This document shows, piece after piece, positions 6,614 to 38,358 of a DNA stretch of 50,093 nucleotides (positions are counted from its first letter, which is position 1; the number at the start of each line of letters is the position of its first letter). Source of the stretch: a virus (taxonomy: Duplodnaviria; Caudoviricetes). The DNA lies in IMG/VR virus record IMGVR_UViG_3300020122_000466, positions 1-50,093 of that record; one strand, 5' to 3'. The notes below the pieces were generated by a model. The model saw only the letters and a program-made list of their open reading frames with translations. It was not told the DNA's origin and searched no databases. Made by a program: the position numbers and the translations under genes.

Positions 6614-6938
6614 ACGCCTATGGAATGCTGAGAGCGTTCCACCTAAGGGTGTGGTGCTCACCATCAAGCATGTGGAAGAGGAGCGCTTGGGCATCGATCG
6701 TGAACTCCGTGCAGTGCTCTACTTTGAAGAGGACCACCGAGGGCTCCCCTTGAGTAAGACTCGGTGGCTCTCCCTCGAATCCTTCGCAGGAGGCAATCCT
6801 GCCCGATGGGTTGGCCAGAAGGTCTTCCTGCGTACCGCGCAGATCTCCTTCAAAGGGAAAGCAGTCCCAAGCATCCACATCTCTCGACCACCCCCTACGC
6901 CTGAACCTGCTCCACAGGAGAAACCTGATGTCGAGTGA
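6582..6938 (+). CDS. Conserved phage protein, probable OB-fold ssDNA-binding type
   Basis: Start ATG 6582 with AAAGGA; LTIKHVEEE..VLYF..LSKT..WVGQKVFL..FKG pattern recalls a common phage replication-module family. Confidence 0.55.
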   Translation: MTLAKEDFFPERLWNAESVPPKGVVLTIKHVEEERLGIDRELRAVLYFEEDHRGLPLSKTRWLSLESFAGGNPARWVGQKVFLRTAQISFKGKAVPSIHISRPPPTPEPAPQEKPDVE

Positions 6939-7110
6939 TGCTGTGGAGGTACGGGCGACACAAGAATTTGTCCTTGCAGCGCTTAGGCTTAAGAGAGATT
7001 TCGGTGCATCCACTGATGATCTCATTGGCCTTCTACAGATGCTGGATGATCCTGAGAGTATGCGTCGTACCGTGCAACGTATGGATGCATTCAAACGTGG
7101 AGATACCTAA
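6928..7110 (+). CDS. Small hypothetical protein
   Basis: 60 aa from ATG 6928 with AGGAG RBS. Confidence 0.5.
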   Translation: MSSDAVEVRATQEFVLAALRLKRDFGASTDDLIGLLQMLDDPESMRRTVQRMDAFKRGDT

Positions 7111-7445
7111 TGGCAAACTTCAGTAAGCTCGCGACTCTTGGGACAGCGACTGGTCCCCAGCCGAACATCAGGCCCCCTATGCAAGTGGGAGGGATGGAAG
7201 CGCCGGGGCCTGAGCCTGGTGAGGGTTCCCCGCAAGAGGAGGCGGAGGATCGCGCCTCAGGTGAGCGGGAACCTCCTCCCACTCCGCGTGATCATAAGCA
7301 AGCCATCACCCATGAACTCAGTAGTATTAGCTATAATGCGAAACATGCGGCGGCCCACCATCAGGAGACCGCCAAGCACTCCACCAAACTCCTCAACCTG
7401 CTGAAGAATGTGCCGGGGTTTGCGGAGCACGCCCGTAAGGTCTAA
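7110..7445 (+). CDS. Small disordered protein with MANFSKLA N-terminus
   Basis: 111 aa, GGAG RBS, TAATG coupling on both sides. Confidence 0.65.
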   Translation: MANFSKLATLGTATGPQPNIRPPMQVGGMEAPGPEPGEGSPQEEAEDRASGEREPPPTPRDHKQAITHELSSISYNAKHAAAHHQETAKHSTKLLNLLKNVPGFAEHARKV

Positions 7446-9285: not shown

Positions 9286-9966
9286 ATGGCTGCGATCCCC
9301 TGCCAAGATTATGTCACTGAGGCCCCAGGGCTGGTGCCCAAGCGCATCGAGCGCACCAACCCGGATGCGCTCCGTAATCGCTGGGTGAACTTCATCCTCT
9401 CCCTTGATCTCAGCCCGGAGCAGAAGGATGCGCTTGGTGAAGGAGTGGGTGCGTGGAGCCTGTGGGACGTGCCCGCCACCCACTGCGCGCAAATCGATGA
9501 TGACCGTGGAGAAGACCTGATTGCGTTCAGCATCATGGACAATGTGTTTTGGTTCGACTGGACTCGCACCCAAGATGAGTGGAGCTGGAATGCGTTTGCG
9601 CCCATCCACCACCTCATTCGGATTGGTCCCCTCCCTTCCAATCCTACTGAGACTCAACCTCAGGGTGGCTTTGACCTCGCAGCGCTCAAGCGCATGGTGG
9701 AGTTCACCTTCACTCTGAAGGATGGGGATACGGGGGCACCTGGCGCCATTTGGACGGTGACGGTTGGGGAATGGGACCGGGAGGAAGCCACCTCCCGTAC
9801 CGGGCGCCGGGCCACTGCTGAGAGGATGCGCACCCAGATTAGTGTGAAAGGGCGCGCCTTCATCATTACCCTAGAGCACAGCGCCAATGAGCCCGTGCAC
9901 ATCGACCACTGGCACGCCGCCTGGGACCTCGTGGGCAGGCGGGTGCGCGAGGCAGGGATCGTCTAA
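9286..9966 (+). CDS. gp10 / tubular protein B-like hub, putative C-terminal part
   Basis: Start ATG 9286; ILSLDL..GAWSLW then IRIGPL..GFDLAALKRM..KGRAFIITLEH resembles the last propeller blade and C-terminal sandwich of this family. Confidence 0.55.
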   Translation: MAAIPCQDYVTEAPGLVPKRIERTNPDALRNRWVNFILSLDLSPEQKDALGEGVGAWSLWDVPATHCAQIDDDRGEDLIAFSIMDNVFWFDWTRTQDEWSWNAFAPIHHLIRIGPLPSNPTETQPQGGFDLAALKRMVEFTFTLKDGDTGAPGAIWTVTVGEWDREEATSRTGRRATAERMRTQISVKGRAFIITLEHSANEPVHIDHWHAAWDLVGRRVREAGIV

Positions 9967-27221: not shown

Positions 27222-27485
27222 TCACACCAGCGCCAACGCCATCAGCGCCCGTGTCGCACAGTGGGCAAGTTCACGGCGCATCGCCACCCGATGGTCCTCA
27301 TCATAGTCGTCAAGGGCCTTACTGGCGTGATCAAACAAGTGCTCCACATGTTCCTTCACGGACTGGGTGAGCCACTTGGAGCCCTTGGCAGCATCATAGC
27401 GTTCCAGCACCATCTCCACTTCACGGAGGGCGACCGCTAAGTCTGAGAGATACGAACGGGTGGGGTGCATAGGATCAATGACCAC
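27222..27485 (-). CDS. DUF5664-like (dATP/dGTP diphosphohydrolase-type) small helical protein
   Basis: KW....EH..H...H ... ELAHCATRALMAL pattern. Confidence 0.45.
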   Translation of the reverse strand: MVIDPMHPTRSYLSDLAVALREVEMVLERYDAAKGSKWLTQSVKEHVEHLFDHASKALDDYDEDHRVAMRRELAHCATRALMALALV

Positions 27486-27627
27486 GACGCCACTCCTGTT
27501 GTTTCAATGATTGATAGAGCCGGTGCTGGGCACAGGTCACATACCCTCGCGAGGCGGGCTGCCGACAATCACGACACTTCCCCTCCCTCCACTGTCTCCT
27601 GCGCCACTGCTGCATGTATGGTCCCAT
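27475..27627 (-). CDS. Small zinc-finger protein
   Basis: GKCRDC...TCAQH; AAGGGG RBS before ATG 27627. Confidence 0.5.
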   Translation of the reverse strand: MGPYMQQWRRRQWREGKCRDCRQPASRGYVTCAQHRLYQSLKQQEWRRGH

Positions 27628-28630
27628 GTTCCCCTTCTGGGTTGAGGGTAAGGGTGCGCGCATCGCCATCGCCTCCATTTGCCACAAGTAATTTGAGTTC
27701 TAGACACTTAGTGATGAGGAGGCGCGCCACGCGCATCCGCTTGGTTTCATACCCCCACTTCTCACAGATCACCTGGGCGAGGTTGAGGACAGTGGAGGAA
27801 CTACCCATCCCTTGCAGAATCTGCACCACACCTTGCGGTTCCCCGCGCCCGGGGGCGCAGCGCTCAAACCAGAGGGTGCGCTCGTTGAGGATGATGGTGG
27901 TGGGCTCAATGCTGGGGCCGTAGCGTCCATCAAATTCGAGTCTTGATTTGGGGCCGCCTCCGCTGTCTTTGCCCAAAGGTACAAGAGAAAGTACGCTATC
28001 GGGGGCAGCAGAAAGAACATCAGCTCCTCTCGTACGCTGGAGAGCGCGACGATGGATAGATGCTTCAGAAGGCTTGCTATCATGATGTACAAGCACGATT
28101 GCACAACCGGGGTCATCCACCATCGTTGAGAGTCTCTTAAACATCCTGCCAACGATCGCGTTATCATTCTCATTCTCCGTCAGGACATGGGAGACCGGGT
28201 CAAGTATGACAAGGGTTGGCCGCATCCATCGCACAAACTTGACGAACTCGTTGAAGGCCGTAAGGTCATCAAGTCGAACGTCTCGGGTTTCGTTAACCAG
28301 GATGCGACTGAGCTGGGTGTCAGTGAAATCTCCACTCGCCCGCATGTGCGACACCATCGCACTCGCTCGGTCGAACACGCCCCGTTCATGAATCTCCCCT
28401 TGATAAATCAGCACACTGTGCTCCCCACGATGGAGGGGTATGCCCAAGAACTCGGGCTTGTCGGCCGCTAGTGCCAGCGCAAGGTTGAGGGTGAGCATGG
28501 ACTTCCCTTGTTTGGCAGCGCTGTGCAGCATGGTAATGCCTCTCATAGGGACAAGCGCATCCCCCCAGAGGGAGGGGACCGTTGGCACCTCGCGATTGAG
28601 GAGCAGGGAGAGGGTCTCGACCTTGATCAT
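27569..28630 (-). CDS. RepA/AAA_25-type replicative helicase
   Basis: Walker A-like SAAKQGKS, IYQGE, Walker B VILDP, ENDN, LVHHDSK, RGAD motifs; possible C-terminal wHTH. Confidence 0.85.
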   Translation of the reverse strand: MIKVETLSLLLNREVPTVPSLWGDALVPMRGITMLHSAAKQGKSMLTLNLALALAADKPEFLGIPLHRGEHSVLIYQGEIHERGVFDRASAMVSHMRASGDFTDTQLSRILVNETRDVRLDDLTAFNEFVKFVRWMRPTLVILDPVSHVLTENENDNAIVGRMFKRLSTMVDDPGCAIVLVHHDSKPSEASIHRRALQRTRGADVLSAAPDSVLSLVPLGKDSGGGPKSRLEFDGRYGPSIEPTTIILNERTLWFERCAPGRGEPQGVVQILQGMGSSSTVLNLAQVICEKWGYETKRMRVARLLITKCLELKLLVANGGDGDARTLTLNPEGEHGTIHAAVAQETVEGGEVS

Positions 28631-28854
28631 TCATCGCTGGTGATAAGTTGGTGTAACACATCTTCAAGGGAGGGCTCGGCGAGTTTAGCTCGGATCGCGT
28701 TGATCACCGCATCATGCACCATCATGTGAGGGAAATTGATATAGTAGACTGCATCGCGCAGGATGCTCCCAAGTGGCTCCTGTGGGATGAGTATCCCACC
28801 TTCTGGATGATAGATCACTCCCCACTTACTCACGTGCCAGATATCAAGCGGCAT
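28627..28854 (-). CDS. Hypothetical protein
   Basis: 75 aa, overlaps both neighbours. Confidence 0.5.
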   Translation of the reverse strand: MPLDIWHVSKWGVIYHPEGGILIPQEPLGSILRDAVYYINFPHMMVHDAVINAIRAKLAEPSLEDVLHQLITSDE

Positions 28855-30148
28855 AAGCCTTCATGTTATCCCAACTGGAGCCCACCTTAATCTCCACTGG
28901 GAACTTCACGAACCGCTGCCCTAGCCATACCGCGCGTTCCATGATCTCCTTCACCTCAGCAGCGAGCGCTGGTAAGCGCTCGGTGGGCGCATGCCCAAGA
29001 AACGCATCATGAATCTGAATGGAGAGGTGACGGAAGATGGACTCAGGGAAGCGGAGGAGGTTGAAACTCATGATGTCCGCTGCTGTACCTGAATTGATGG
29101 TGGCCAGACCCTCTTTATGTGGCTCACTTCCAAGAAGTACACGGACCCGTCCGAAAGCGTTACGTACAAACACTGGAACTCGTTGGGCACGGGCCTGATC
29201 CATGCTTGCCCCCACGCTAATTTGCCACGCCGCGATCTCTGGGTAGACTTGGAAGAGTTTACTTTGGAGTTCTTCGATGAGCGCTTGCTCAAGGTAGATC
29301 CCTTTGCGACTGAGCGCGATTTGGATGGCAACCTTTCCTCCCCCGTATAGAGATGCGAATACAAAGTTCTTAGCAAGGGTCCGGTTAACACCTTGGGTGT
29401 TGAAGAGGGCCTTCTCATTCTCCGCGTGGATATCCGCGCCTTCTTCTAAGCGCTCGATGAGCCTGCGCACATTCGCTAGGTAAGCTAGAGTACGTAACTC
29501 TAACATATGATAATCCCACTCGATTAACTGTTCACCTTCTGGAGCTACGAACACCTCCCGCAAGTGATGCTCCACACCAGTGTTATCCACAATAGGAAAG
29601 GTCTCATCCTTCTTCGCAATGTTCTGAAGGTTAGTGCCATGCCCCGCTTGATTACACACCTGGCACCAGCCTAGTTTGGCGCTGGAATACCGGCCAGTCT
29701 CTGTCCCAGTTGAACGGAGAGCAGTCCGCAGGCGCCCATCCTTGCAAGGGATCATACTCGTTAGGTTTGCGCGGGTCTTCTCCACCTTCTTCCGTTTGAT
29801 CAGCAGTGGCAGGAATGGGAACCGTGGATCACTGGGGCGCACCTCATTGAAGTGGTGGTGGATGCGCCTGAGCACATCGAGGTCAGTGACAAACTCCCCC
29901 CCTGGAGTTTTCTTCTCCAGAGGGACACCGAGCGCTCGTAGATCCCGGCTGAGCTGCTTACCACTGCCCGCGTCCATGATGCCCGCAGCGGTCAGCTCCA
30001 TGTCCAAGTCTGCGAGCATCTGGGCGCTCCACTGAATGAGCTGCAGCCTGCGCGCGTTATCCATGGGTAAGCCTTGGAGGCCCAAGCGCTGCACCCTTGG
30101 CAGCAGTGCTAGGCCCATGCGGTGGATGTAGGCGACTCCTAAGCTCAT
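28844..30148 (-). CDS. polA: Family A DNA polymerase, polymerase domain only
   Basis: TETGRYSS, NLQNI, motif A DYHMLELR, motif B RTLAKNFVFASLYG, motif C QIHDA; start set to ATG 30148 by TAATG coupling. Confidence 0.9.
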   Translation of the reverse strand: MSLGVAYIHRMGLALLPRVQRLGLQGLPMDNARRLQLIQWSAQMLADLDMELTAAGIMDAGSGKQLSRDLRALGVPLEKKTPGGEFVTDLDVLRRIHHHFNEVRPSDPRFPFLPLLIKRKKVEKTRANLTSMIPCKDGRLRTALRSTGTETGRYSSAKLGWCQVCNQAGHGTNLQNIAKKDETFPIVDNTGVEHHLREVFVAPEGEQLIEWDYHMLELRTLAYLANVRRLIERLEEGADIHAENEKALFNTQGVNRTLAKNFVFASLYGGGKVAIQIALSRKGIYLEQALIEELQSKLFQVYPEIAAWQISVGASMDQARAQRVPVFVRNAFGRVRVLLGSEPHKEGLATINSGTAADIMSFNLLRFPESIFRHLSIQIHDAFLGHAPTERLPALAAEVKEIMERAVWLGQRFVKFPVEIKVGSSWDNMKAYAA

Positions 30149-30282
30149 TACCACACGAGATGCCAATGCCGTGGGCAATAAGCCCATCCCACTTGCGCAC
30201 ATTGACAAGGGGGATCAGGGGCGAACCAGAGCCAATAAATCCAGCGCCAGAGCGCGGCGGCGATGGTGGCGGGGGTGGTCAT
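30148..30282 (-). CDS. 44-aa Trp/Cys-rich protein (not in ORF track)
   Basis: MTTPATIAAALWRWIYWLWFAPDPPCQCAQVGWAYCPRHWHLVW; coupled ATGA upstream and TAATG downstream. Confidence 0.55.
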   Translation of the reverse strand: MTTPATIAAALWRWIYWLWFAPDPPCQCAQVGWAYCPRHWHLVW

Positions 30283-30491
30283 CGTGGCTTCCACTCAAAA
30301 TCGTGATGCGACGGGGAAGGGTCCACCTTCGCGCACTCCCCAATCGCCTTCGTGAACTTCGTCTCGCAGTCCGCAAAGTACTGCTGACCAAGCGCATAGT
30401 CGGGGATGCCCGGATGGAGGCAACCTTGATGGTCGTCGATGGCGCCTCGGAGACACACGAACAACATCACGGCGGCGAGATCGCTGCTCAT
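30279..30491 (-). CDS. Hypothetical protein
   Basis: 70 aa, GGAGGAG RBS. Confidence 0.5.
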   Translation of the reverse strand: MSSDLAAVMLFVCLRGAIDDHQGCLHPGIPDYALGQQYFADCETKFTKAIGECAKVDPSPSHHDFEWKPR

Positions 30492-30567
30492 TTCGTCTCC
30501 TCCTGCGCGTCCGTCCGCCGCTTCTGCCCGGCTTCAATCAAGTTCGCGATCTTCCGCAGATTGGTGA

Positions 30568-30948
30568 TCATCTCGTCGGTGGTCGTAGGGCGGCGTCGAG
30601 GGCGGTGGCGGCTCCTTTCGCGGCCCATCCCGGTTCACAAGGTGGGTCGTAATCACCACAGTGCTGATCATGCAGCTTCCGGGCCTGATCCCGCTCCCTT
30701 CGCAGCCGCGCCACCTCGGCCCGTACTTCTCGCAAGGTAGTGGCGTCGTTGGTCAGCGCTTCAATCAACCCTTGCGCACCCGCGACCATTTGTTCCGGTG
30801 TTGCGTGCGGCCCGAGGCTCAGCGCCTCACCAATCGCAATGAGCGCGTCCCGCAGGGCGGTGACGAGCCCCGCGCGACCGTCCGAACCATCTTCTAAGAG
30901 TTGCGTTATGAAGCGTGTGGCCTGCGCGATCAGGTCGTCAGGCGCCAT
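30568..30948 (-). CDS. Hypothetical protein
   Basis: Start ATG 30948 after GGAGGAGG; coiled-coil C-terminus. Confidence 0.55.
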   Translation of the reverse strand: MAPDDLIAQATRFITQLLEDGSDGRAGLVTALRDALIAIGEALSLGPHATPEQMVAGAQGLIEALTNDATTLREVRAEVARLRRERDQARKLHDQHCGDYDPPCEPGWAAKGAATALDAALRPPTR

Positions 30949-31180
30949 CGGGTGCCTCCTCCACTCTCCGTCGTGCAGCTTTCCGCCGCTGCTTGCGTGC
31001 GCTCGCCACATCCTGACACCGCCGCGTACAGTAAATGCGTAGACGATTCGTGGTCATAAACCACGCCTTGCAGACCGCGCAGGACTTCCGCCCCTCAACG
31101 GTGATACCGAGCGTCGCTTCAATGCGCTCGATGCGTGCCTCCAGCGTGGTGAGCGTGGTTGCCTTCGTTGCCCACGTCAT
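30938..31180 (-). CDS. Small zinc-binding protein
   Basis: CAVCKAWF...YCTRRC. Confidence 0.6.
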   Translation of the reverse strand: MTWATKATTLTTLEARIERIEATLGITVEGRKSCAVCKAWFMTTNRLRIYCTRRCQDVASARKQRRKAARRRVEEAPDGA

Positions 31181-31482
31181 TCCCGGTCCTCCGGCGACGG
31201 GGGGAAGGTCCGATCAAGCAAGCACGCGAGTCGTTCCTGTTCTTGTCGTGATAAGCCGTACCCACCCCTGACGCGCGTCTGCAAAATACGATCTTCAGCG
31301 GAGAGCTGTGGCGCCTGTGCGACCAGGGCGATTAGCTCGAAGATCGTGCGCGACGCCAAGTCCTCATTGTACGCCGCGAGCATTTCCGCCGTCGCCTTCG
31401 CCCGGCGCAGCACCGCCGCGTGCTCAGGGCTCACCCCACCACGCTTAGGTTGGAAACAATGCTCACAAAACTCCTTACTCAT
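31177..31482 (-). CDS. Hypothetical protein
   Basis: 101 aa, ATGA-type coupling. Confidence 0.55.
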   Translation of the reverse strand: MSKEFCEHCFQPKRGGVSPEHAAVLRRAKATAEMLAAYNEDLASRTIFELIALVAQAPQLSAEDRILQTRVRGGYGLSRQEQERLACLLDRTFPPSPEDRE

Positions 31483-32165
31483 GGCACCACCACAAACTGA
31501 AAACTCACCTTCACAGGCCCAAACGCACTCGCCAGCGCCCTCCCTTGCTGATCATTGACCAGCCGCCCCAGCTTATGTGCAGTCAGGGTCTCTACTCGCG
31601 TGATCACCGGGATCCCCGTCGCGCCAGCCCTCATCTGCAGCTCATGCACCAGCGCATCCTCTGGGGTCTGATACCACAGATGGTTCAACACGGTGGCGAT
31701 CTCAGTGAGCTGATACTTGCTCACCCCATAATCCGGTTGATCCGCGCGCTTACTCTCACAATCGAGGGTGAGACACACATTCTGCTGCAAATACCATTGT
31801 AGCTCATTCACATCTGGCCCTTCATTGTTGGCCCAAATTTGGGCGATGGGCGCGCTATCCATAGGCTGAAAGAGGACCATGCTCGCATGCACTCCGCTGA
31901 GCCAGGGGAGCACACTGGTGGGGCCCACCCCCTCGCTGATCGCCAAGGTGAGCAAGCCCTTCACTCGTTTCCCACTCTCAAAGGTCAGGGTGCATTCAGG
32001 GGGCAGACCTAGGCGGGTGCAGAGCGCATTCTGCCGATCCGGGATGGTATTCCCTCCCCCATGTGCGGTGGTCACGAGCACCAAAGGGAGGAGGGCCAGC
32101 AACCAGTACACCCAGCGAGGGATGCGCACACTGTTCATCATCACGACGGTGCCGAGGGAGCCCAT
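31479..32165 (-). CDS. Exported protein with signal peptide
   Basis: Start ATG 32165 after AGGAGG; WVYWLLALLPLVLVTTAHG; paired Cys. The longer start at 32306 runs through a strong hairpin region. Confidence 0.6.
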   Translation of the reverse strand: MGSLGTVVMMNSVRIPRWVYWLLALLPLVLVTTAHGGGNTIPDRQNALCTRLGLPPECTLTFESGKRVKGLLTLAISEGVGPTSVLPWLSGVHASMVLFQPMDSAPIAQIWANNEGPDVNELQWYLQQNVCLTLDCESKRADQPDYGVSKYQLTEIATVLNHLWYQTPEDALVHELQMRAGATGIPVITRVETLTAHKLGRLVNDQQGRALASAFGPVKVSFQFVVVP

Positions 32166-32302
32166 AGGACCCTCCTGTTGAGGGAAGTTGACACCCACCC
32201 CTGCCTTTGCCGTGGACAAGGGTGGGTGCCTTCCTTCCTCGTTCAGCTCCCGATTGTCAAAGAGCGTGGGAGGAGCCCCGGGTGAAGGGGGGCCAAGGGT
32301 GT

Positions 32303-33100
32303 TCATGCCATCAACCTCTCAAGTGAGAGCGCCGCGCCTGCCTGCGCAAAGCAGTCTCGGAGGCAATAAATGCGCAAGCGCTCATCCGCCATCTCCTGCA
32401 AGTTCTCAAACTTCACGAGGTCATCGGCCTCTTCCTCGGTCCCTTCCGTTTGATGCACTTCCTCCTTATAAGCAGGAAGGTCTGTATCCATACTTGCTTG
32501 GTGGGCCAGCGAGTGTGGTAGCTCTGGACAGACGCAATGGTGAGCGACCATCGTGTCGATCTCAAGGCCCTTAGGTTTAATTCCCCATGCACGCCGGGTG
32601 AGAGCGTAATGTGTTTCATCCCATCCTTCATCGCTAAAACCTCCATCAAATCCCACCCAATTCTGGCCCACCTTCTTCCATGAAGGGTCCTCTAGAAACT
32701 CGCGGATGAGCCCAAGAACCTGGCGTTCCTCACCAGCGGGCCAGTATGGGTGCCCCCCACGACACCGAAAGGGGATACACAACCCTTGGGCATCGAGCCA
32801 ACTGTCAACAGGCCACATGCCCATACACCAAATCTCCCCCGCAAAGGTGGCCTCAAAGTCCACACTCATGCGCTGCCCATGCATGAACCCCATAAAGGTG
32901 GCCACTTCCTCTAGGGTGGGATAGAGACTGGCCTTGGGATACCCAGCACCAGTGCGCTCACACTTGGGGATCAAGGTGGGCCCTTCCTTCTGAATCCTCA
33001 CGAGCTTCTTGAGATCCCTGAGCACACAGATTTGCATCTTTTGGGAGCGCAGGAGGGCAGCCGGGTGGATCGTTGGTACTACGTATGCAGGGTATTTCAT
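32303..33100 (-). CDS. 3'-5' exonuclease (DEDDy) preceded by the C-terminal fragment of a family 4 uracil-DNA glycosylase
   Basis: VVPTIHPAALLR (UDG motif B) at residues 7-18; ExoI VDFE, ExoII GQN..FD, DTM..H..PELPHSL, ExoIII YCLRD. Confidence 0.85.
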   Translation of the reverse strand: MKYPAYVVPTIHPAALLRSQKMQICVLRDLKKLVRIQKEGPTLIPKCERTGAGYPKASLYPTLEEVATFMGFMHGQRMSVDFEATFAGEIWCMGMWPVDSWLDAQGLCIPFRCRGGHPYWPAGEERQVLGLIREFLEDPSWKKVGQNWVGFDGGFSDEGWDETHYALTRRAWGIKPKGLEIDTMVAHHCVCPELPHSLAHQASMDTDLPAYKEEVHQTEGTEEEADDLVKFENLQEMADERLRIYCLRDCFAQAGAALSLERLMA

Positions 33101-33163
33101 GGAGTCTTCACTGGAGTGGGAATAGTCTCCACTACCTGTGTGAGTACTTCATTGACATTCCCT

Positions 33164-33550
33164 CTACGGTGTAAGAGCTTGAACCGTAACACCTGTTGGC
33201 GGAGTCGGGATTGCTGGATTAAGAAAGGTTACCGCATTGGATGCGGCACCTCCTTGTCCTAGGGAGTTGATGGCCACCAACGTGACCCCGTAGGTGGTGC
33301 CTGGTGTGAGGGTTGAGGGGTAGGGTTGGGTGGAGCAGCGCTTGGTACCACTCACCACACTCCCTGCGAGCACATCGGCATAGAGGAGCACCGCTGGACC
33401 ACTGGGCGGGGTCGCGTCAGCGCGGATGGTGGCCGCGCTGGGATCAACGCTCCCATTATCATAACAAATCTTTAGACTCGCGGCGTGCGCGGGTGACCAG
33501 CTCACCATCAGTGAGATCAATAGGATCCACAGGAATGTCCACCACCGCAT
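33164..33550 (-). CDS. Exported fibronectin type III-like protein
   Basis: Signal peptide ending PAHA; LTPGTTYGVTLVAINSLG..SNAV..PTPPTGVTV. Confidence 0.65.
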   Translation of the reverse strand: MRWWTFLWILLISLMVSWSPAHAASLKICYDNGSVDPSAATIRADATPPSGPAVLLYADVLAGSVVSGTKRCSTQPYPSTLTPGTTYGVTLVAINSLGQGGAASNAVTFLNPAIPTPPTGVTVQALTP

Positions 33551-34268
33551 GTTCCTTCTCCCTTCGTTTGGCTAACTTTCGGATGCCGATGCGCTGCCAT
33601 CCCATAATCTTCCGCAACCGCCGCTCAAACTCCTTCCACCATGGTTCATCAAAGGGCACATCCTTCATTGTCCATGGTTTGAGTCCCCGTAGGGCGATCT
33701 TGGCGACGGCATCGAATCCATAGAGAGGTAAATCATCCACATCGATGAGCTGGGGGCGCCCCCTGTATAAGCCAATCTTGTCGTGCCCGGTGAGCAGCTC
33801 CAGCGCCACGCCTCCCTGTGGCCCGATAGCGCGATTGGAATTCCGCTTAAACAACTCTTTAAGCAAATTGACCGCACTGTCATGACAACACGCGAGGGCC
33901 TTTCTGCCAATCGGCGAGTTGGCCTTGTTCTTCGGGGGCTGACACATGGCCGCATTCATAATGAACGCATTGATCGACTTGACACGGGCATACTTGAGCC
34001 CTGGTTGCATGGTCACCAAGCCCGCTTTCGCTAACAACTCTCTCTTCCACATTTCACCTGAGCGCCCCACAAAGGGTTCCCCATAAGGCTGGCGATGCTC
34101 ATTGTACTCGGTCTCATCCTTCCCAGGCATCTCCCCGATGAGGATGAGGGGGGCGTCGAGGGGCCCAGCACACCCAACCTTTCGCTTATGATTCAACGGG
34201 CACAGCGCACATTGCGAACCGTGCTCTAGTCGCCACTGGACTAGATCCCCCTCGAAGGGCGCGCTCAC
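33459..34268 (-). CDS. Family 4-like uracil-DNA glycosylase, N-terminal part
   Basis: CALCPL, IGEMPG, PFVGRSG, NAAMCQP, ACC, GGVA, IGLYRG; lacks the HP motif. Confidence 0.85.
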   Translation of the reverse strand: MSAPFEGDLVQWRLEHGSQCALCPLNHKRKVGCAGPLDAPLILIGEMPGKDETEYNEHRQPYGEPFVGRSGEMWKRELLAKAGLVTMQPGLKYARVKSINAFIMNAAMCQPPKNKANSPIGRKALACCHDSAVNLLKELFKRNSNRAIGPQGGVALELLTGHDKIGLYRGRPQLIDVDDLPLYGFDAVAKIALRGLKPWTMKDVPFDEPWWKEFERRLRKIMGWQRIGIRKLAKRREKEHAVVDIPVDPIDLTDGELVTRARRESKDLL

Positions 34269-34828
34269 TGGCCTTTAGGAATCCACGCCGTAATAGCTTG
34301 CTTATCGTTAAACTGGGTCTTCTCCCCAGTGGCTTTGTTGACCCCTGACCCACCCTTCTCCACACCCACTTCAGCGCTGAATTGCATCCCAGCCATGGAG
34401 CGCGCTTTGCTGATCAAGTCCTCCAGAGCGGTCTGCTTGCTGACGATCACATTCTGGTAGAAGTTCTCCGCAACGTCGCTGCCATGCACCGCCACCGCCA
34501 AGCCCGCGAGGAAGGGCATGGCCATCGACTTATACGCGCTCTGTTTCTTCCCCTCACCAATCCTCGGATCAGCATAGGTGATGATAGGAAACTCGCGCCC
34601 ATCGTTCTCCCCACCAATGACCCCAAAGATCGAGGTGATGAACACCCCCTTCGCATCCTGCGCCCCATTCCCCTTGGGTTCATTGGTGAGCTTCATGCTC
34701 ACCAGTTGCAGCTTCTCTCGCTTGGGGCGTGCCTGGTTCATCAACGGCAGCCGAACTTGGATATCCTTGAGCGACCCAATCTCACTAAGGTCATCTTCTC
34801 CGACATAGACCTGATCAGCCATCGACAT
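34265..34828 (-). CDS. Putative ssDNA-binding protein (DUF669-like)
   Basis: AGGAGG RBS; GENDGREF..GMQFSAEVGVEK..; sits in the nuclease-ATPase-SSB cluster. Confidence 0.5.
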   Translation of the reverse strand: MSMADQVYVGEDDLSEIGSLKDIQVRLPLMNQARPKREKLQLVSMKLTNEPKGNGAQDAKGVFITSIFGVIGGENDGREFPIITYADPRIGEGKKQSAYKSMAMPFLAGLAVAVHGSDVAENFYQNVIVSKQTALEDLISKARSMAGMQFSAEVGVEKGGSGVNKATGEKTQFNDKQAITAWIPKGQ

Positions 34829-35150
34829 TCTCCTCCTGAGTTGTGTCAGCACCGTTGATGGGCTGAGCAGGTTTGGCCTTCCCTACTTTGCGCTTCTTGA
34901 CCACCTTGGTGCCCTCACTGGCGGCCTTCCGGCCAGGTTTGCGGGGCATCACCCCATGATCTTGGGCGAGGCCAATGATGCCCTCCGCGAACTTCACCAT
35001 CTTCTGAATATACTCAAATGAATCACTCATCCACTTATCTCCTTTACCATATGGTAGTTCACATAACTCTTCGAAATAGTTATCCAATGACCTTTGTATC
35101 CACCGTGTTAGGAGTCGTCTTGACCTCGCTCGTTGTATTCTTGGGTGCAT
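34815..35150 (-). CDS. Basic hypothetical protein
   Basis: 111 aa, Lys-rich tail; start uncertain. Confidence 0.45.
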   Translation of the reverse strand: MHPRIQRARSRRLLTRWIQRSLDNYFEELCELPYGKGDKWMSDSFEYIQKMVKFAEGIIGLAQDHGVMPRKPGRKAASEGTKVVKKRKVGKAKPAQPINGADTTQEENVDG

Positions 35151-36018
35151 AGATACCTAACTTGTTCAGCAACCGATCCCCATCAGCGGGTTCCACATCC
35201 TTCAGCTTCTTCCCAAACCGGTGCTTGGCACGGTAAGGACTACTAGAGCTAGCCAGTTTAGGATCATTGCTAGTAAGCCATACAAAGTCTCCACTGGGTG
35301 ACCTTTCACAGTGAAAACAAGCATCAAACCAAGAAGGGATGTGACCAGGCAGTTTGCGGCCAACAGCGTCAGGCCCAGCTCCTGTTTTGATATTTGTGTC
35401 CTTCTCATCATAGGCTTGTCCTTCCAAGAATGACCAAATGAGCACAAACGGGAGTGATTTGGTCACATCCAGCGCGGCCTTAAAGCGCAGATACATCATC
35501 CCATAGTCACTCATCTCCAGGGTGCGCCCCGCAAACCCGGTGATATCGGGGACAAGGGTGAGCAGCCGGTTGCGCTTTCCATTGTCGTCACTCCCCATAA
35601 TGGACTCAGCATTGGGGGTGGTGAACGCCACCTCCAGCATCCTGCTCAGCTCAGTCCCCCCATCGACAAACAGGGTGGTGTACCCCTCTCCGATCAACTT
35701 TTGCAAGTTCGCCTTGATCCAGCGCACTTGATCGCACATATCGGCCCAACTACGCACAGTTATCAATCGCACTTGATCAGGGGTGAGGCACTCATGGATG
35801 CCCGCCAGGTGGAGCAAGGGGGTGGCACCACCAGCCCCCTCTTCAGGGCCACTCTCAATGTTGAGATAGAGCAGCTTGCCACGAGCACCCCCAGCGAAAC
35901 TGGCGCCATTGGTGGACTTCCCGGAGCCACTGGGGCCATAGAGCGCGATGGACAAGCGCTCACCTTTAAGGGCGGAGAGCTGCTGGCCACCAATCACACT
36001 ACCCATCGCTAGGCTCAT
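35080..36018 (-). CDS. AAA_24/Sak4-like ATPase (recombination)
   Basis: LYGPSGSGKST, YLNIE, TLFVDG, DYG, PSWFD, AKHR motifs. Confidence 0.82.
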   Translation of the reverse strand: MSLAMGSVIGGQQLSALKGERLSIALYGPSGSGKSTNGASFAGGARGKLLYLNIESGPEEGAGGATPLLHLAGIHECLTPDQVRLITVRSWADMCDQVRWIKANLQKLIGEGYTTLFVDGGTELSRMLEVAFTTPNAESIMGSDDNGKRNRLLTLVPDITGFAGRTLEMSDYGMMYLRFKAALDVTKSLPFVLIWSFLEGQAYDEKDTNIKTGAGPDAVGRKLPGHIPSWFDACFHCERSPSGDFVWLTSNDPKLASSSSPYRAKHRFGKKLKDVEPADGDRLLNKLGIYAPKNTTSEVKTTPNTVDTKVIG

Positions 36019-36193
36019 CCGCAGGAAATAGCGTTAGGATCAATGTCTTCTCCCCCTTCAAGACCACCCAATGATTCAGTTTCACCGAAATGCTGCCGTT
36101 AGGATTGATCCACGCGCATCCTACTTCTGCTTTCGCATCCGTCGCGGTGTCCATCGCTTTCAAGCGGTAATCAGGCTTACGACTGGCAGCCAT
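35999..36193 (-). CDS. Small conserved phage protein
   Basis: VGCAW...GSISVKL pattern. Confidence 0.55.
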   Translation of the reverse strand: MAASRKPDYRLKAMDTATDAKAEVGCAWINPNGSISVKLNHWVVLKGEKTLILTLFPADEPSDG

Positions 36194-36195
36194 AC

Positions 36196-36456
36196 TTAGA
36201 GATACTTCCTCAACGCCCGCGCATTCTCTTTGATCACCGTCATGGCCTTGGTGATCTCCGCATGCGCTTTCACCGTCAGGCCCGCGAGGTGCAGATCCTT
36301 GATGATGCGCTGCACGACCTGCTCACCCGTTTCCACCACCTTCACCTTTCGGCGACGTTTCCGGCGTAGTGATCGAGGCCGTTTTGGGCGCTTGGGTGCC
36401 AACTTGGGCTTATTCTTCTTGTGCACGGTGATAGGCATATCCTTCACTTTCTCCAT
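36196..36456 (-). CDS. Very basic small protein
   Basis: Lys/Arg-rich; start uncertain. Confidence 0.5.
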   Translation of the reverse strand: MEKVKDMPITVHKKNKPKLAPKRPKRPRSLRRKRRRKVKVVETGEQVVQRIIKDLHLAGLTVKAHAEITKAMTVIKENARALRKYL

Positions 36457-37474
36457 TGGGCGCTATCAAGTTGGGGTGAAGGTGGGGCTCCTCACACAGC
36501 CTGTAAAAGGGGCACTGTTCCCCAAACTTCGCACAATTGCTAGTGTTCTGGTGCCACCATTCTTTGGGCTTGTCCCACCGTGCGCTGAGATCAGCGCGCA
36601 GGCTGCACAAGCGCTCGTAGTAATCCAGCAATTGCTCCGTGTTGGTGGGCCTGCTCTCTCGGTGGAGCGACTTGGGGCTCAGCGTTCCTAACCTGATAAG
36701 GTTGTATTCGATCTCATCAGCCTTTTCCCATGTAATCTGCTTATCATCTCCACGAATATCAAGGATATAGTCCGTAATCCCCAGCCCCTCAGCGATCACT
36801 TCCGCTTGTGCTGCTCCACGAGAATGCCCTTGCCACACCCCACAGATGGGGGCGAGATTCCACCCAAACACATACCCAAGGTGCTGATCACTGCGCAGCA
36901 AATCTCGCACATAGTAGGTCAAGCTGGAGGCTTTGGTGGCTTTGTGGTCTTGCACCGTGAGGCCCACACTATCAAGCCTATCGAGAGCGAGAGGATCATT
37001 GCGTTTAAACACACGATCAATGCGACCTGTGACCAGTCTAAGGTGCTCAGCAATAGGGCCATAAGGGGTCTCCGCTGGCAGCTTATAGCTAAAGCTGACT
37101 TCGACTGCGATGGTGCGCTCCACCCCCGCTTCCAGGCGGGCTAGCTGGCCCTCGGCCCAGACGGGGAGCACTTGGCGGGCCAGTTTCACGCGCTCCTCTA
37201 GATAAGGATCATCAAGCGCCCACTCCACTTCTTGTTCATCAAGGAAGTTGTTGAAGGCGACGACCGCCTCACCCATACAACTATCTTTGGGCGCCCCGAG
37301 GAGCTGACATTCATAGAGTGATTGGGCGTAGATGTGGACCGCTTCCCCTACCACTAGGGCAGGGCTCAGCCCTTGAGCCGTAGGCTCAAGGCGCTGCACA
37401 TGCGCATGAAACCCCTTGCGCATGCACTGGGTGAAGTCCCCATTCCAATGGCCACCTTGCCCACTACTCGGCAT
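36410..37474 (-). CDS. PD-(D/E)XK nuclease (Cas4/RecB-like)
   Basis: N-terminal QCMRK, GEAVH, AVE, GRIDRV, QDHKAT, QH..Y and C-terminal C..C.FY.LC; start ATG 37474 preferred. Confidence 0.85.
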   Translation of the reverse strand: MPSSGQGGHWNGDFTQCMRKGFHAHVQRLEPTAQGLSPALVVGEAVHIYAQSLYECQLLGAPKDSCMGEAVVAFNNFLDEQEVEWALDDPYLEERVKLARQVLPVWAEGQLARLEAGVERTIAVEVSFSYKLPAETPYGPIAEHLRLVTGRIDRVFKRNDPLALDRLDSVGLTVQDHKATKASSLTYYVRDLLRSDQHLGYVFGWNLAPICGVWQGHSRGAAQAEVIAEGLGITDYILDIRGDDKQITWEKADEIEYNLIRLGTLSPKSLHRESRPTNTEQLLDYYERLCSLRADLSARWDKPKEWWHQNTSNCAKFGEQCPFYRLCEEPHLHPNLIAPNGESEGYAYHRAQEE

Positions 37475-37673
37475 CTGGCCCAATCCCTTGTGCTTCGAGC
37501 GCACGCTCAACACAGTCGAGCATACGAATAAGCTCATCATCGTGAAAACAATAACGCTTGGTCACAATGCTTACTTGTTGAAGTGCAACTTGGAGCCAAC
37601 GCTGAAGTCCGAGAAGGGTGAGTGGATCACCAGTCCGAGGAACGCTGATCCATCCAGGCTCATTTACCATCAT
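37464..37673 (-). CDS. Hypothetical protein
   Basis: 69 aa, coupled to neighbours. Confidence 0.5.
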   Translation of the reverse strand: MMVNEPGWISVPRTGDPLTLLGLQRWLQVALQQVSIVTKRYCFHDDELIRMLDCVERALEAQGIGPDAE

Positions 37674-37870
37674 TGCCTCGCAAAGAATCGCAGTTGGAAT
37701 GCCCGTACACAGGCTGCCACGGGACGCGCTCCATCAGAGCTACCGACAAAGCGAACTAACGCTGCCTCTATACAGTCCTCAAGAGTCGGGAGTTCATTCG
37801 ATTCATTATTAAATAGATACTCCACCACCTCATGCACTGCATGAGTGTAGCGCTCATCATTACTTGGCAT
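37670..37870 (-). CDS. Hypothetical protein
   Basis: 66 aa, coupled to neighbours. Confidence 0.5.
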   Translation of the reverse strand: MPSNDERYTHAVHEVVEYLFNNESNELPTLEDCIEAALVRFVGSSDGARPVAACVRAFQLRFFARQ

Positions 37871-38108
37871 CAGCGCGCGCCTTCAACATCGCATCCGCCA
37901 TCTCGTACGCAATCTGCGCAGCCGTCGCTGGGGTGTCTTGACTCACATCCCCACCATTTTGCGCAATGAGTAGTTGGCCGCGCTGAATCATGGGGAGGGC
38001 CTGCCCCGCAAACCAATCTCGCAAGCTCATCCCATGGCAATGACCATTCTCGGCAGCGTGCCCAAACGCCGCACCACCATCGCGCTCATCTGGATGATCA
38101 TTCGGCAT
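37860..38108 (-). CDS. Conserved phage hypothetical protein
   Basis: GGxAF..GMSLRDWFAGQAL..AY..ADAML.AR, a widespread phage motif. Confidence 0.75.
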   Translation of the reverse strand: MPNDHPDERDGGAAFGHAAENGHCHGMSLRDWFAGQALPMIQRGQLLIAQNGGDVSQDTPATAAQIAYEMADAMLKARADAK

Positions 38109-38358
38109 ACTTCTCCACCCGTTTCATAATGAGGAACGCCATCTCCACAATCCGATTCTGAATATCCCCCATGAGCTGCCGGTGCACATGGGCGATGTCA
38201 TCCTTGATGTCACTCACCAGTTCTTCGTACTCCGATTGGGTCACAAGGGTCCTGACTGGCGGGGGCACGGCTCCGCCCTTGGTGTGTGGGGTGTGCTTGA
38301 GCATCTGCGTGGTGACCTCGTGTGCAGCAAGCCCTATCGTACGCAAGGGTTGGGCCAC
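38098..38358 (-). CDS. Hypothetical protein
   Basis: 86 aa, AAGGGG RBS. Confidence 0.5.
   Translation of the reverse strand: MAQPLRTIGLAAHEVTTQMLKHTPHTKGGAVPPPVRTLVTQSEYEELVSDIKDDIAHVHRQLMGDIQNRIVEMAFLIMKRVEKYAE

Follow-up and report, generated by a model that had tools for sequence, protein, structure and literature searches.

A UDG-bearing family A DNA polymerase divided among three genes of a soil tailed phage, with one cut inside the UDG fold

Phage replicative polymerases that combine a uracil-DNA glycosylase (UDG)-like module, a 3'-5' exonuclease, and a family A polymerase (UDG-PolAs) are known as single proteins, and here we describe a phage in which the same three modules are divided among three genes. 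The phage is represented by the complete IMG/VR virus record IMGVR_UViG_3300020122_000466, whose whole length of 50,093 bases was analysed and is referred to as the window; it is estimated to be 96% complete, and is the near-complete genome of a soil tailed phage. Three minus-strand genes of the window, P1, P2 and P3 (Table 1), encode products that line up end to end on fused UDG-exonuclease-polymerase proteins of ~800 amino acids (aa), with no overlap and only a short loop absent. The explanation that we consider probable is a replicase of the UDG-PolA kind in which an ancestral single gene was cut twice and the three products reassemble non-covalently. By comparison with known proteins, the novelty would lie in the three-subunit form and in the cut through the UDG fold, with module order, folds, and motifs being of a kind already known.

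The colinearity of the three pieces with fused polymerases is direct. On a fused 799-aa homolog (L002, 7593-9992), P1 residues 34-170 align to residues 8-127, P2 residues 7-213 to 137-335, and P3 residues 133-386 to 478-713. When 10 fused proteins and the pieces are aligned by MAFFT, the conserved part of P1 extends as far as the column of an Arg-Gly (RG) pair, P2 begins six columns later and finishes at column 429, and P3 residue 21 falls on that same column 429. The first cut interrupts the family-4 UDG fold at the loop that joins the hairpin strand after RG to strand 4, and the second lies just past exonuclease motif ExoIII; a 697-aa relative, P0034, reads through the P2/P3 junction as one protein. 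Set beside UDG-PolAs, the window has an N-terminal family-4 UDG-like fold, divided between P1 and the first ~40 residues of P2, the colinear module order of UDG, 3'-5' exonuclease, and polymerase, and intact exonuclease motifs I-III and polymerase motifs A-C. What departs from the type is that the modules do not share one polypeptide, being encoded by three open reading frames (ORFs) with other genes between them. The placement of exonuclease and polymerase on separate genes also agrees with the split exo/pol arrangement, and this cut is kept in the related loci L088-L092. The original prediction, which was made from the letters of the window, had described these same three minus-strand genes and held that P3 resumes where P2 stops; all three are present, and the alignment that it proposed as a check finds the pieces in series without overlap.

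P1 carries most, but not all, of a family-4 UDG. Its core contains strands 1-3, four cysteines (C20, C23, C109, and C128) that we take to be Fe-S ligands on the family-4 UDG pattern, motif A GEMPG (E46), PFVG (F66), and N105 before MCQPP, and the UDG part finishes at IGLYRG. Aligned to 1l9g and 1ui0, P1 shows the four cysteines, GEMPG at the place of the family's motif A GE(A/G)PG, and the pocket Phe and Asn of this family. Strand 4 and the His-Pro (HP) motif, which a single-chain family-4 UDG would have on the same chain, are missing from P1; the HP motif sits on P2, and no His-Pro dipeptide can be read anywhere in the P1 translation. The Pfam UDG match of P1 is confined to profile positions 4-101 of 141 (E 7.7e-6), and a PDB profile search matches P1 to residues 13-149 of 192 of 1l9g (E 1.6e-17). 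The description of P1 as having the Cys ligands, GEMPG, and IGLYRG and no HP is thus borne out by its translation and by the partial Pfam match.

The missing part of the fold opens P2, which starts with six residues (MKYPAY) followed by VVPTIHPAALLR. Residues 1-40 of P2 match the RG-to-strand-4 region of the 10 fused proteins in hhalign (probability 98%, E 1.7e-13). The exonuclease motifs that follow read DFE (ExoI), QNxxGFD (ExoII), and YxxxD (ExoIII), their key residues are invariant in 19 sequences, and the stop codon comes 16 residues past ExoIII, so the earlier view of P2 as the missing motif joined to a complete exonuclease that ends soon after ExoIII holds. P2 matches phrog_17 'DNA polymerase' at positions 606-818 (E 2.9e-14) and P3 matches positions 851-1236, directly following the P2 span on the same profile. 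P3 also matches Pfam DNA_pol_A over profile positions 26-380 of 381 (E 8.2e-37), and what we take to be polymerase motifs A-C are intact by eye. P3 likely starts at ATG 30148, as the original prediction also favored, rather than at TTG 30208 of the longest ORF, because relatives align only from residue 21 of the longest ORF and because this ATG forms a TAATG overlap with the end of the upstream 48-aa ORF; the first 20 codons of the longest ORF have no counterpart in relatives.

Modelled alone, P1 and the P2 N-terminus are both incomplete. The AlphaFold2 model of P1 has a mean predicted local distance difference test score (pLDDT) of 78.9, strands at 41-45, 102-105, and 147-150, and a helical tail. 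Its best structural matches are family-4 UDGs, and its residues 1-179 match residues 1-154 of the 190 of Thermotoga maritima UDG 1vk2 (Z 13.3, root-mean-square deviation 2.8, 148 aligned), leaving the final strand, HP loop, and final helix of the solved enzyme unmatched; in this model P1 does not, then, fold as a complete UDG on its own, an outcome that would have told against the original prediction. The match to the UDG domain of the phiLo polymerase, 9qhs (Z 7.5, 115 residues), stops at residue 173, just short of catalytic His178, the catalytic residues of that enzyme being given as E53 and H178 in the section of PMC13697223 that we draw on. P2 alone gives an exonuclease domain with pLDDT 87-98 and 20 N-terminal residues in coil (pLDDT 53 and 63). 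A model of the P1+P2 complex, built from our own alignments of both proteins, scored 0.89 against 0.01 for the best of three controls, where the mark used for this score is reached by 58 of 80 solved complexes and by 2 of 110 mismatched pairs, counts that are only rough with our own alignments. Agreement between runs covers ≥94% of contacts, with a partner pLDDT of ≥83. In the model, P2 residues 1-17 contact P1 147-150 and 172-177, P2 residues 4-8 pair with both, and the interface includes P1 residues 45-46 and 66. Complex modelling had been suggested as a check, and by placing the P2 strand in the P1 sheet it supports, as far as computation reaches, the predicted three-chain replicase with a UDG site formed from P1 and P2.

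Both cuts are conserved among relatives. A scan of IMG/VR with the P2 alignment yielded five related loci (L088-L092), in which gene order was determined by tblastn with the window's replication proteins. The order is P1, P2, P3, AAA_25 in L088, L089, and L090 and P1, P2, P3 in L091; L092 begins inside P2, continues with P3 and AAA_25, and keeps the second cut. Both cuts are therefore kept in 4/4 related contigs that hold all three pieces (L088-L091; P3 identity 35-55%), and the P1 gene is upstream of P2 in all five genomes with upstream sequence (the window and L088-L091). The P1/P2 gap holds 2-12 ORFs over 1.1-4.2 kb in the relatives, or 1-12 ORFs and 0.36-4.2 kb between ORFs with the window included, and the P2/P3 gap ranges from 0 ORFs (L089, L092) to five or more. 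Genes inserted in the gaps are almost never common to relatives, the exceptions being a small exported protein and one 116-130-aa family. Because both cuts are kept while the gap genes almost all differ, the cuts are fixed and the cargo fluid. The P2 and P3 ORFs of L089 overlap by 41 nucleotides (nt; 9561-9601) in different frames, leaving no intervening gene, and those of L092 lie 38 nt from each other; the cut therefore existed before it was filled by the 2.1-kb cargo block of the window. The clade was retrieved by the P2 alignment only: viral-contig scans with P3, with P1, or with the three closest P1 proteins found no loci, and a metagenome scan with the P1 alignment, whose motifs are too general, returned 80 generic UDG loci at ≤39% identity and no close relatives.

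Standalone P1-like and P2-like proteins form families of their own. Searching about 5.8 billion proteins with P1 gave 10 proteins among 899 candidates: the window's own, one 155-aa fragment, and eight full-length standalone P1-like proteins of 237-281 aa at 41-80% identity. In an alignment of nine of the 10, with the fragment dropped, G45, E46, P48, G49, F66, N105, C109, and C128 are invariant. The same search with P2 gave 19 proteins among 640 candidates; the 18 standalone P2-like proteins are 242-284 aa long at 36-89% identity, and every one finishes just past ExoIII. A 439-aa UDG-exo protein from this search was left out of the P2 alignment, 15/19 rows of which (the window included) have HP near the N-terminus. 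One P1 homolog and one P2 homolog (P0003 and P0012) each come from a 49,358-base contig, probably the same one. With both cuts conserved in independent related genomes and the standalone families persisting at 36-89% identity, the split is a maintained architecture rather than decay or misassembly, as the original prediction had argued in part. We also observe that P0024, a P2 homolog of 284 aa, has ~25 extra upstream residues that include the segment G-G-A-A-L .. Y-R-G, which in the window is part of P1; either a differently placed cut or a second copy of the segment in that genome might explain this.

The state of the motifs across the pieces differs among the five genomes. The window and L088 keep both GE.PG and HP, and L089 is intermediate, keeping the Glu and HP with the motif A Gly changed to Phe and the pocket Phe to Leu. 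In L090 and L091, motif A and the motif B His are both gone, with both genes, the Cys pattern, and the tail motif kept. This joint loss from two separate genes is suggestive, over five genomes, of one shared site, where chemistry would be optional atop a conserved structural role.

The cut inside UDG extends beyond this clade. Searched by HMMER with P2, a set of 1.84 billion cluster representatives yielded 827 matches at E ≤0.001, and the best 150 were classified by length and match start. Among these best 150, 32 clusters begin at the HP strand, of which 16 are short, like P2, and 16 are long (692-1425 aa), comprising the C-terminal part of UDG, exonuclease, and polymerase; the others are fully fused (57), UDG-exo only (28), of intermediate length (14), with a partial N-terminus (9), or unclassifiable (10). 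Six long HP-start proteins that we read begin with M, two residues, and then V-P-T/S-L-H-P-A. For P0039-type polymerases we found no close cultured-phage relative, only three distant records, the best of which (Rctr197k) is fused. A FastTree phylogeny of the exonuclease region had 137 rows, namely 136 of the 150 representatives and the window, after 10 late-start and 4 short or partial matches were dropped. HP-start forms fall in three well-supported clades (7/7, 5/6, and 15/15 rows) with two more scattered, and at least six state changes are needed, three of them forced by starred branches. The tree is a quick, unrooted one from a short region, and a choice between a single and several origins of the UDG cut is beyond its reach. 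The window's clade includes P0034, in which P2 and P3 are one protein, and the second cut was therefore gained or lost within the clade. Judged from these sequences, the cut inside UDG is old and widespread and not peculiar to this phage.

One locus of the long HP-start kind, on viral contig L095 (8978-12214), merits a separate remark. Its ORF for the N-terminal part of UDG lies directly upstream, ends eight residues past RG, and has no tail, and it shares one frame with the polymerase ORF, from which it is parted by a single stop and 68 stop-free codons before the HP-strand Met. The shared frame may be due to chance in GC-rich DNA, with a recent nonsense mutation or read-through as alternatives. 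Counting L095 with the window and L088-L091, a P1-type gene is found close by in 6/6 genomes.

If the pieces reassemble as we propose, P1 would supply the Fe-S cysteines, motif A Glu46, and the uracil pocket, and the N-terminal strand of P2 would slot between P1 strand 3 and P1 172-177, completing the sheet and bringing in motif B His12. Only the P1-P2 heterodimer would then contain a competent uracil site. Packing between P2 and P3 would resemble that of the exonuclease and polymerase domains in one-chain enzymes, and, if the solved structures of phiLo and YerA41 are a guide, the reassembled UDG module would scan the template strand for deoxyuridine before the polymerase reaches it. Both cut sites would have turned into stable intergenic slots that collect lineage-specific accessory genes. 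We regard physical assembly as much more probable than glycosylase activity, which in this phage we would put at about even to likely. A more ambitious form of the idea, which we offer tentatively and which may well prove too strong, is that of a naturally split glycosylase: a dissociable P1 bearing the Fe-S site, motif A, and a basic tail would dock on P2, allowing uracil surveillance to be tuned apart from synthesis, with the cut being old and repeatedly retained (the three HP-start clades) and the cuts acting as fixed landing slots.

The tail of P1 is one feature that this proposal does not readily accommodate. It is ~100 aa long and has a clade-wide motif, h-K-x-h-L-R-G-x-K-P, followed by E-E-W; K190, G195, K197, and P198 are invariant in 9/9 aligned P1 homologs, and the motif is present in L088-L091 too, including relatives without UDG catalytic motifs. 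The tail has no counterpart in the 10 fused polymerases of the MAFFT alignment, where it is scattered along the columns, and hhalign finds no similarity between it and either the P2 N-terminus or the strand-4/HP region of fused proteins (probability <1%). A PDB profile alignment to UdgX does run into the tail, pairing L-R-G-x-K with the L-L-R-G-P-K-E-E that follows the HP motif (motif B) of UdgX. The tail may serve in docking or in binding DNA, or it may be what is left of a C-terminus that was once duplicated, an origin for which hhalign gives no support.

Several observations weigh against reassembly into an active enzyme. The P1 tail is conserved yet makes no contact with P2 in the complex model, and the loss of motif A and of the motif B His in L090 and L091 means that glycosylase chemistry is apparently dispensable in part of the clade. 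The three-chain assembly rests on models, and the complex score may reflect memory of a fold whose single-chain structure is solved, in which case it would show likeness and not binding. Among P2 rows, P0022 (H-A), P0025 (D-P), and P0028 (L-P) have no HP and P0027 is without the whole segment. The ribosome-binding sites upstream of P2 and P3 are weak. Lastly, the P2 start (33100) is covered by contigs from other sequencing runs, and none of those listed bridges it with 31 letters on both sides.

These points bear on several other readings of the locus. It is possible, though in our judgment rather improbable, that the UDG-like module is non-catalytic, having a structural, processivity, or template-guiding role as proposed for N4-like polymerases, and that splitting it is harmless. 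Such a role would suit L090 and L091, which keep the split layout with both motifs destroyed, the fused relative L002, which has no Fe-S cysteines, and the inactive UDG domains of N4-like PolAs, for which a role in processivity has been suggested (Czernecki et al., in the section of PMC10201439 that we draw on). However, E46, F66, N105, the four cysteines, and H12-P13 are intact and invariant in the window and its nearest relatives, and this residue pattern is that of the active phiLo and YerA41 enzymes. We think it unlikely that P1 is instead an autonomous UDG-like or uracil-binding factor that uses its own tail, with the HP strand of P2 a leftover exonuclease cap. The P1 model has no strand 4 and covers only residues 1-154 of the 190 in the solved UDG, the tail is helical rather than a strand and bears no hhalign resemblance to the strand-4/HP region, the P2 N-terminus is conserved, disordered alone, and seated in the P1 sheet in the complex model, and motifs A and B decay together. 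Against this stand the fair confidence with which P1 folds alone (pLDDT 78.9), the strong conservation of its tail, the hint from the UdgX alignment that the tail is a degenerate copy of the segment after motif B, and the many phages said to carry a UDG in trans in the section of PMC13697223 cited above.

The remaining readings dispense with separate subunits. Polymerase genes of the SPO1 group carry introns, and the pieces could conceivably be rejoined into one chain by an intron, an intein, ribosomal bypass, or frameshifting; the 41-nt overlap of the P2 and P3 ORFs in L089 and the shared frame in L095 could be read in this way. We nevertheless consider rejoining very improbable, given that Rfam at its gathering threshold has 0 hits in the whole window, that a relaxed Rfam search of 28000-34600 gives one chance-level Whalefall-1 match (E 0.33), and that the gaps are occupied by ordinary genes that have ribosome-binding sites of their own, and vary among relatives in length (0.36-4.2 kb) and content. 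By eye, there is no room for intein halves either, the P1 tail starting with a residue other than Cys, Ser, or Thr and only six P2 residues preceding strand 4, and no intein HN boundary residues are seen. A dying polymerase gene or a chimeric contig is hardly credible, even though the window is a single metagenomic contig and frameshifts can occur in metagenome assemblies. In four other soil runs, contigs match the region at ≥99% with one substitution (at 32528), 0 indels, and 0 joints, and span the P3 start, the P2 stop, the P1 stop with the start of the exported gene, and the RG position; this answers the misassembly check set by the original prediction at most junctions. Four further viral contigs show this layout, as do protein clusters derived from other assemblies; no catalytic motif of the exonuclease, polymerase, or UDG is damaged, and the gene starts are translationally coupled. 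A UDG-PolA-kind replicase that reassembles from three products thus continues to be the account that we favor.

This arrangement is best understood against known systems. UDG-PolA fusions are established in SPO1-like, SP15-like, and N4-like phages in the sections of PMC10201439 and PMC13697223 on which we draw, and the latter reports uracil-excision activity for the phiLo and YerA41 enzymes and a coupling of replication with uracil removal. The window shares with phiLo and YerA41 the same three modules in the same order, and conserves the motif A Glu and motif B His as those active enzymes do. Theirs, in contrast, are one-chain enzymes of about 1100-1300 aa that contain large inserts, where here there are three genes, a cut five residues ahead of the catalytic His position, and an extra tail of ~100 aa on P1. 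Similarity to cultured UDG-PolA phages is low (24-31%). The comparison with SPO1-type polymerases made in the original prediction stands for module order, but the nearest relatives of the window are uncultured environmental UDG-PolA phages and not SPO1. The nearest annotated phages to P2 are Caulobacter phage Kuura and Manatee Spring Caudoviricetes MW202554 (27-30% identity); these also have UDG-exo and polymerase as separate coding sequences, with two small ORFs between them in Kuura, but they carry the whole UDG on the exonuclease protein (369-420 aa), with no cut inside UDG and no P1-type tail. Free-standing family-4 UDGs and UdgX (1vk2, 1ui0, 6ail) resemble P1 in fold, Fe-S Cys pattern, GE.PG, and pocket Phe and Asn, and differ in being complete chains of ~190-210 aa with strand 4, HP, and the last helix, which here are on P2.

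A split between exonuclease and polymerase has itself been described, in T7-like cyanophages (S-SBP1-like), and was reported in 2023 as the first in PolAs (PMC10201439, section cited above). There, too, exonuclease and polymerase are on separate genes and are predicted to reassemble. The window's polymerase nonetheless probably belongs to another PolA subfamily than the S-SBP1-like enzymes, which have no UDG and, as described in that section, are encoded by adjacent genes that arose from a +1 frameshift, whereas the cut in the window's lineage is old and clade-wide, is filled by 0-5 or more cargo genes (2.1 kb in the window), and is accompanied by a second cut through a domain; the nearest relatives of the window's polymerase are UDG-bearing polymerases. 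Our full-text literature searches, made on the main articles, turned up only the 2023 paper, and neither in it nor in PMC13697223 did we find a description of a cut inside UDG. Essential phage enzymes cut by inserted DNA are known to work as reassembled fragments, as in the split nrdA of Aeromonas phage Aeh1 and the split T4-type topoisomerase and gp43 genes, with a homing endonuclease gene in the gap. The window differs from these genes-in-pieces in that no endonuclease was recognised in either gap by Pfam and PHROG searches, the sole hint being a sub-threshold NinG-like zinc-ribbon match.

The locus adds a three-subunit form to the UDG-PolAs, in which the motif A Glu and motif B His would be contributed by different proteins. 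It may offer a natural fragment-complementation pair for a glycosylase, permits a test of whether a trans-encoded UDG docks on a family A polymerase, and illustrates how the sites of gene fission in phages could turn into lasting slots for insertions. With 32 of the 150 nearest protein clusters starting at the HP strand, annotation pipelines probably label many such polymerases 'N-terminally truncated' and their partners 'UDG family 4', and the link between them is missed.

Table 1. Positions of the three replicase genes, the genes between them, and their neighbors in the window.
Feature	Position	Strand	Length	Remarks
Sak4-like AAA_24 ATPase	35080-36018	minus		AAA_24 E 4.3e-10; phrog_124 Sak4-like E 5.5e-23
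Upstream replication genes, same direction	34265-36018	minus		195-aa gene coupled to P1 start, 111-aa gene, Sak4-like ATPase
P1	33459-34268	minus	269 aa
P1 core, residues 1-170	33759-34268	minus		N-terminal three-quarters of family-4 UDG-like fold
P1 tail, residues 171-269	33459-33758	minus		strand 172-177, helices 184-192 and 208-241 (AlphaFold2 model)
P1/P2 gap gene	33164-33550	minus	128 aa	signal-peptide-like N-terminus; weak fn3-like match (Pfam fn3 E 0.0068, below cut-off)
P2	32303-33100	minus	265 aa
P2 N-terminal segment, residues 1-40	32981-33100	minus		UDG strand 4, motif B (H12-P13), R18, linker helix
P2 body	32303-32980	minus		complete 3'-5' exonuclease domain; ExoI D81/E83, ExoII N147/D152, ExoIII Y245/D249
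P2/P3 gap cargo block	30149-32306	minus		four clear ORFs (275, 101, 80, 147 aa) and two or three small
Cargo ORF	31479-32306	minus	275 aa	hydrophobic segment
Cargo ORF	31177-31482	minus	101 aa
Cargo ORF	30938-31180	minus	80 aa	weak NinG-like zinc-ribbon match, below cut-off
Cargo ORF	30568-31011	minus	147 aa
Small cargo ORFs	around 30279-30628	minus
Cargo ORF	30148-30294	minus	48 aa	hydrophobic
P3	28844-30148 (or to 30208)	minus		family A polymerase domain: thumb, palm, fingers
AAA_25 / primase-helicase-like ATPase	27569-28630	minus		downstream of P3; Pfam AAA_25 E 1.5e-25; PHROG DNA primase families

The gaps of the window measure ~0.66 kb between P1 and P2, with the P1 tail counted in the gap, and 2.1 kb between P2 and P3. 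The single gene between P1 and P2, foreseen as an exported protein and indeed having a signal-peptide-like start, is preceded by a strong GGGAGAAGGA ribosome-binding site before its ATG and overlaps the P1 3' end by 92 nt, or the last 30 P1 codons. A small exported-type protein of ~117-133 aa also adjoins P1 in L089 (7599-8000), L090 (4089-4442), and L091 (~6749-7120), with its gene 3' of P1 in L089 and L090 and 5' of P1 in L091; the presence of such a protein inside a replication operon is odd. A second small family of 116-130 aa occupies the P1/P2 gap in L089 (8037-8429), L090 (4907-5263), and L091 (9234-9584), and is absent from the window.

Between P2 and P3, the count of about seven genes given in the original prediction is an upper estimate, the clear ORFs being four. 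None of these cargo ORFs has a homolog in the same gap of L088-L091. Positions 30001-32000 have the highest GC content among the window's 2-kb bins (0.610, against 0.546 and 0.569 in the adjoining bins), which fits acquisition of the cargo block from elsewhere, and a search for repeats flanking the gaps found short chance-like matches only. The genes are coupled by a 4-nt overlap of the P1 start with the upstream gene, a 4-nt overlap of the P2 stop with the next gene, and an 11-nt overlap at the P3 stop; a co-directional block with overlapping stops and starts fits co-transcription with separate translation. Within 27400-38200, promoter-like sites (5 seen, 4.9 expected) and terminator-like sites (8 seen, 8.2 expected) are at chance level.

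A distant relative, Vibrio phage vB_VspS_VS-ABTNL-3 (L093, 3554-6688), is annotated with a 568-aa 'exonuclease and polymerase domain protein' and a 298-aa 'DNA polymerase I' on either side of a 184-aa ORF, a layout that, taken as annotated, would represent a cut inside the polymerase domain.

The replication block of the window lies on the minus strand at ~27.5 to 42 kb and includes the Sak4-like AAA_24 ATPase and the AAA_25 primase/helicase-like ATPase, and the plus strand encodes the major head protein, portal, large terminase, and internal virion protein. No tRNAs were detected in the window, a profile scan with the P2 alignment over species-representative prokaryote genomes found 0 relatives and hence no host hint, and no RNA data set is listed among the sources that carry window-like DNA. 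An AAA_25 gene is also 3' of P3 in L088, L089, L090, and L092, with no AAA_25 match in L091, and homologs of the window's upstream replication genes are found upstream of P1 in L088. Near-identical DNA to the window is present in many soil metagenome runs.

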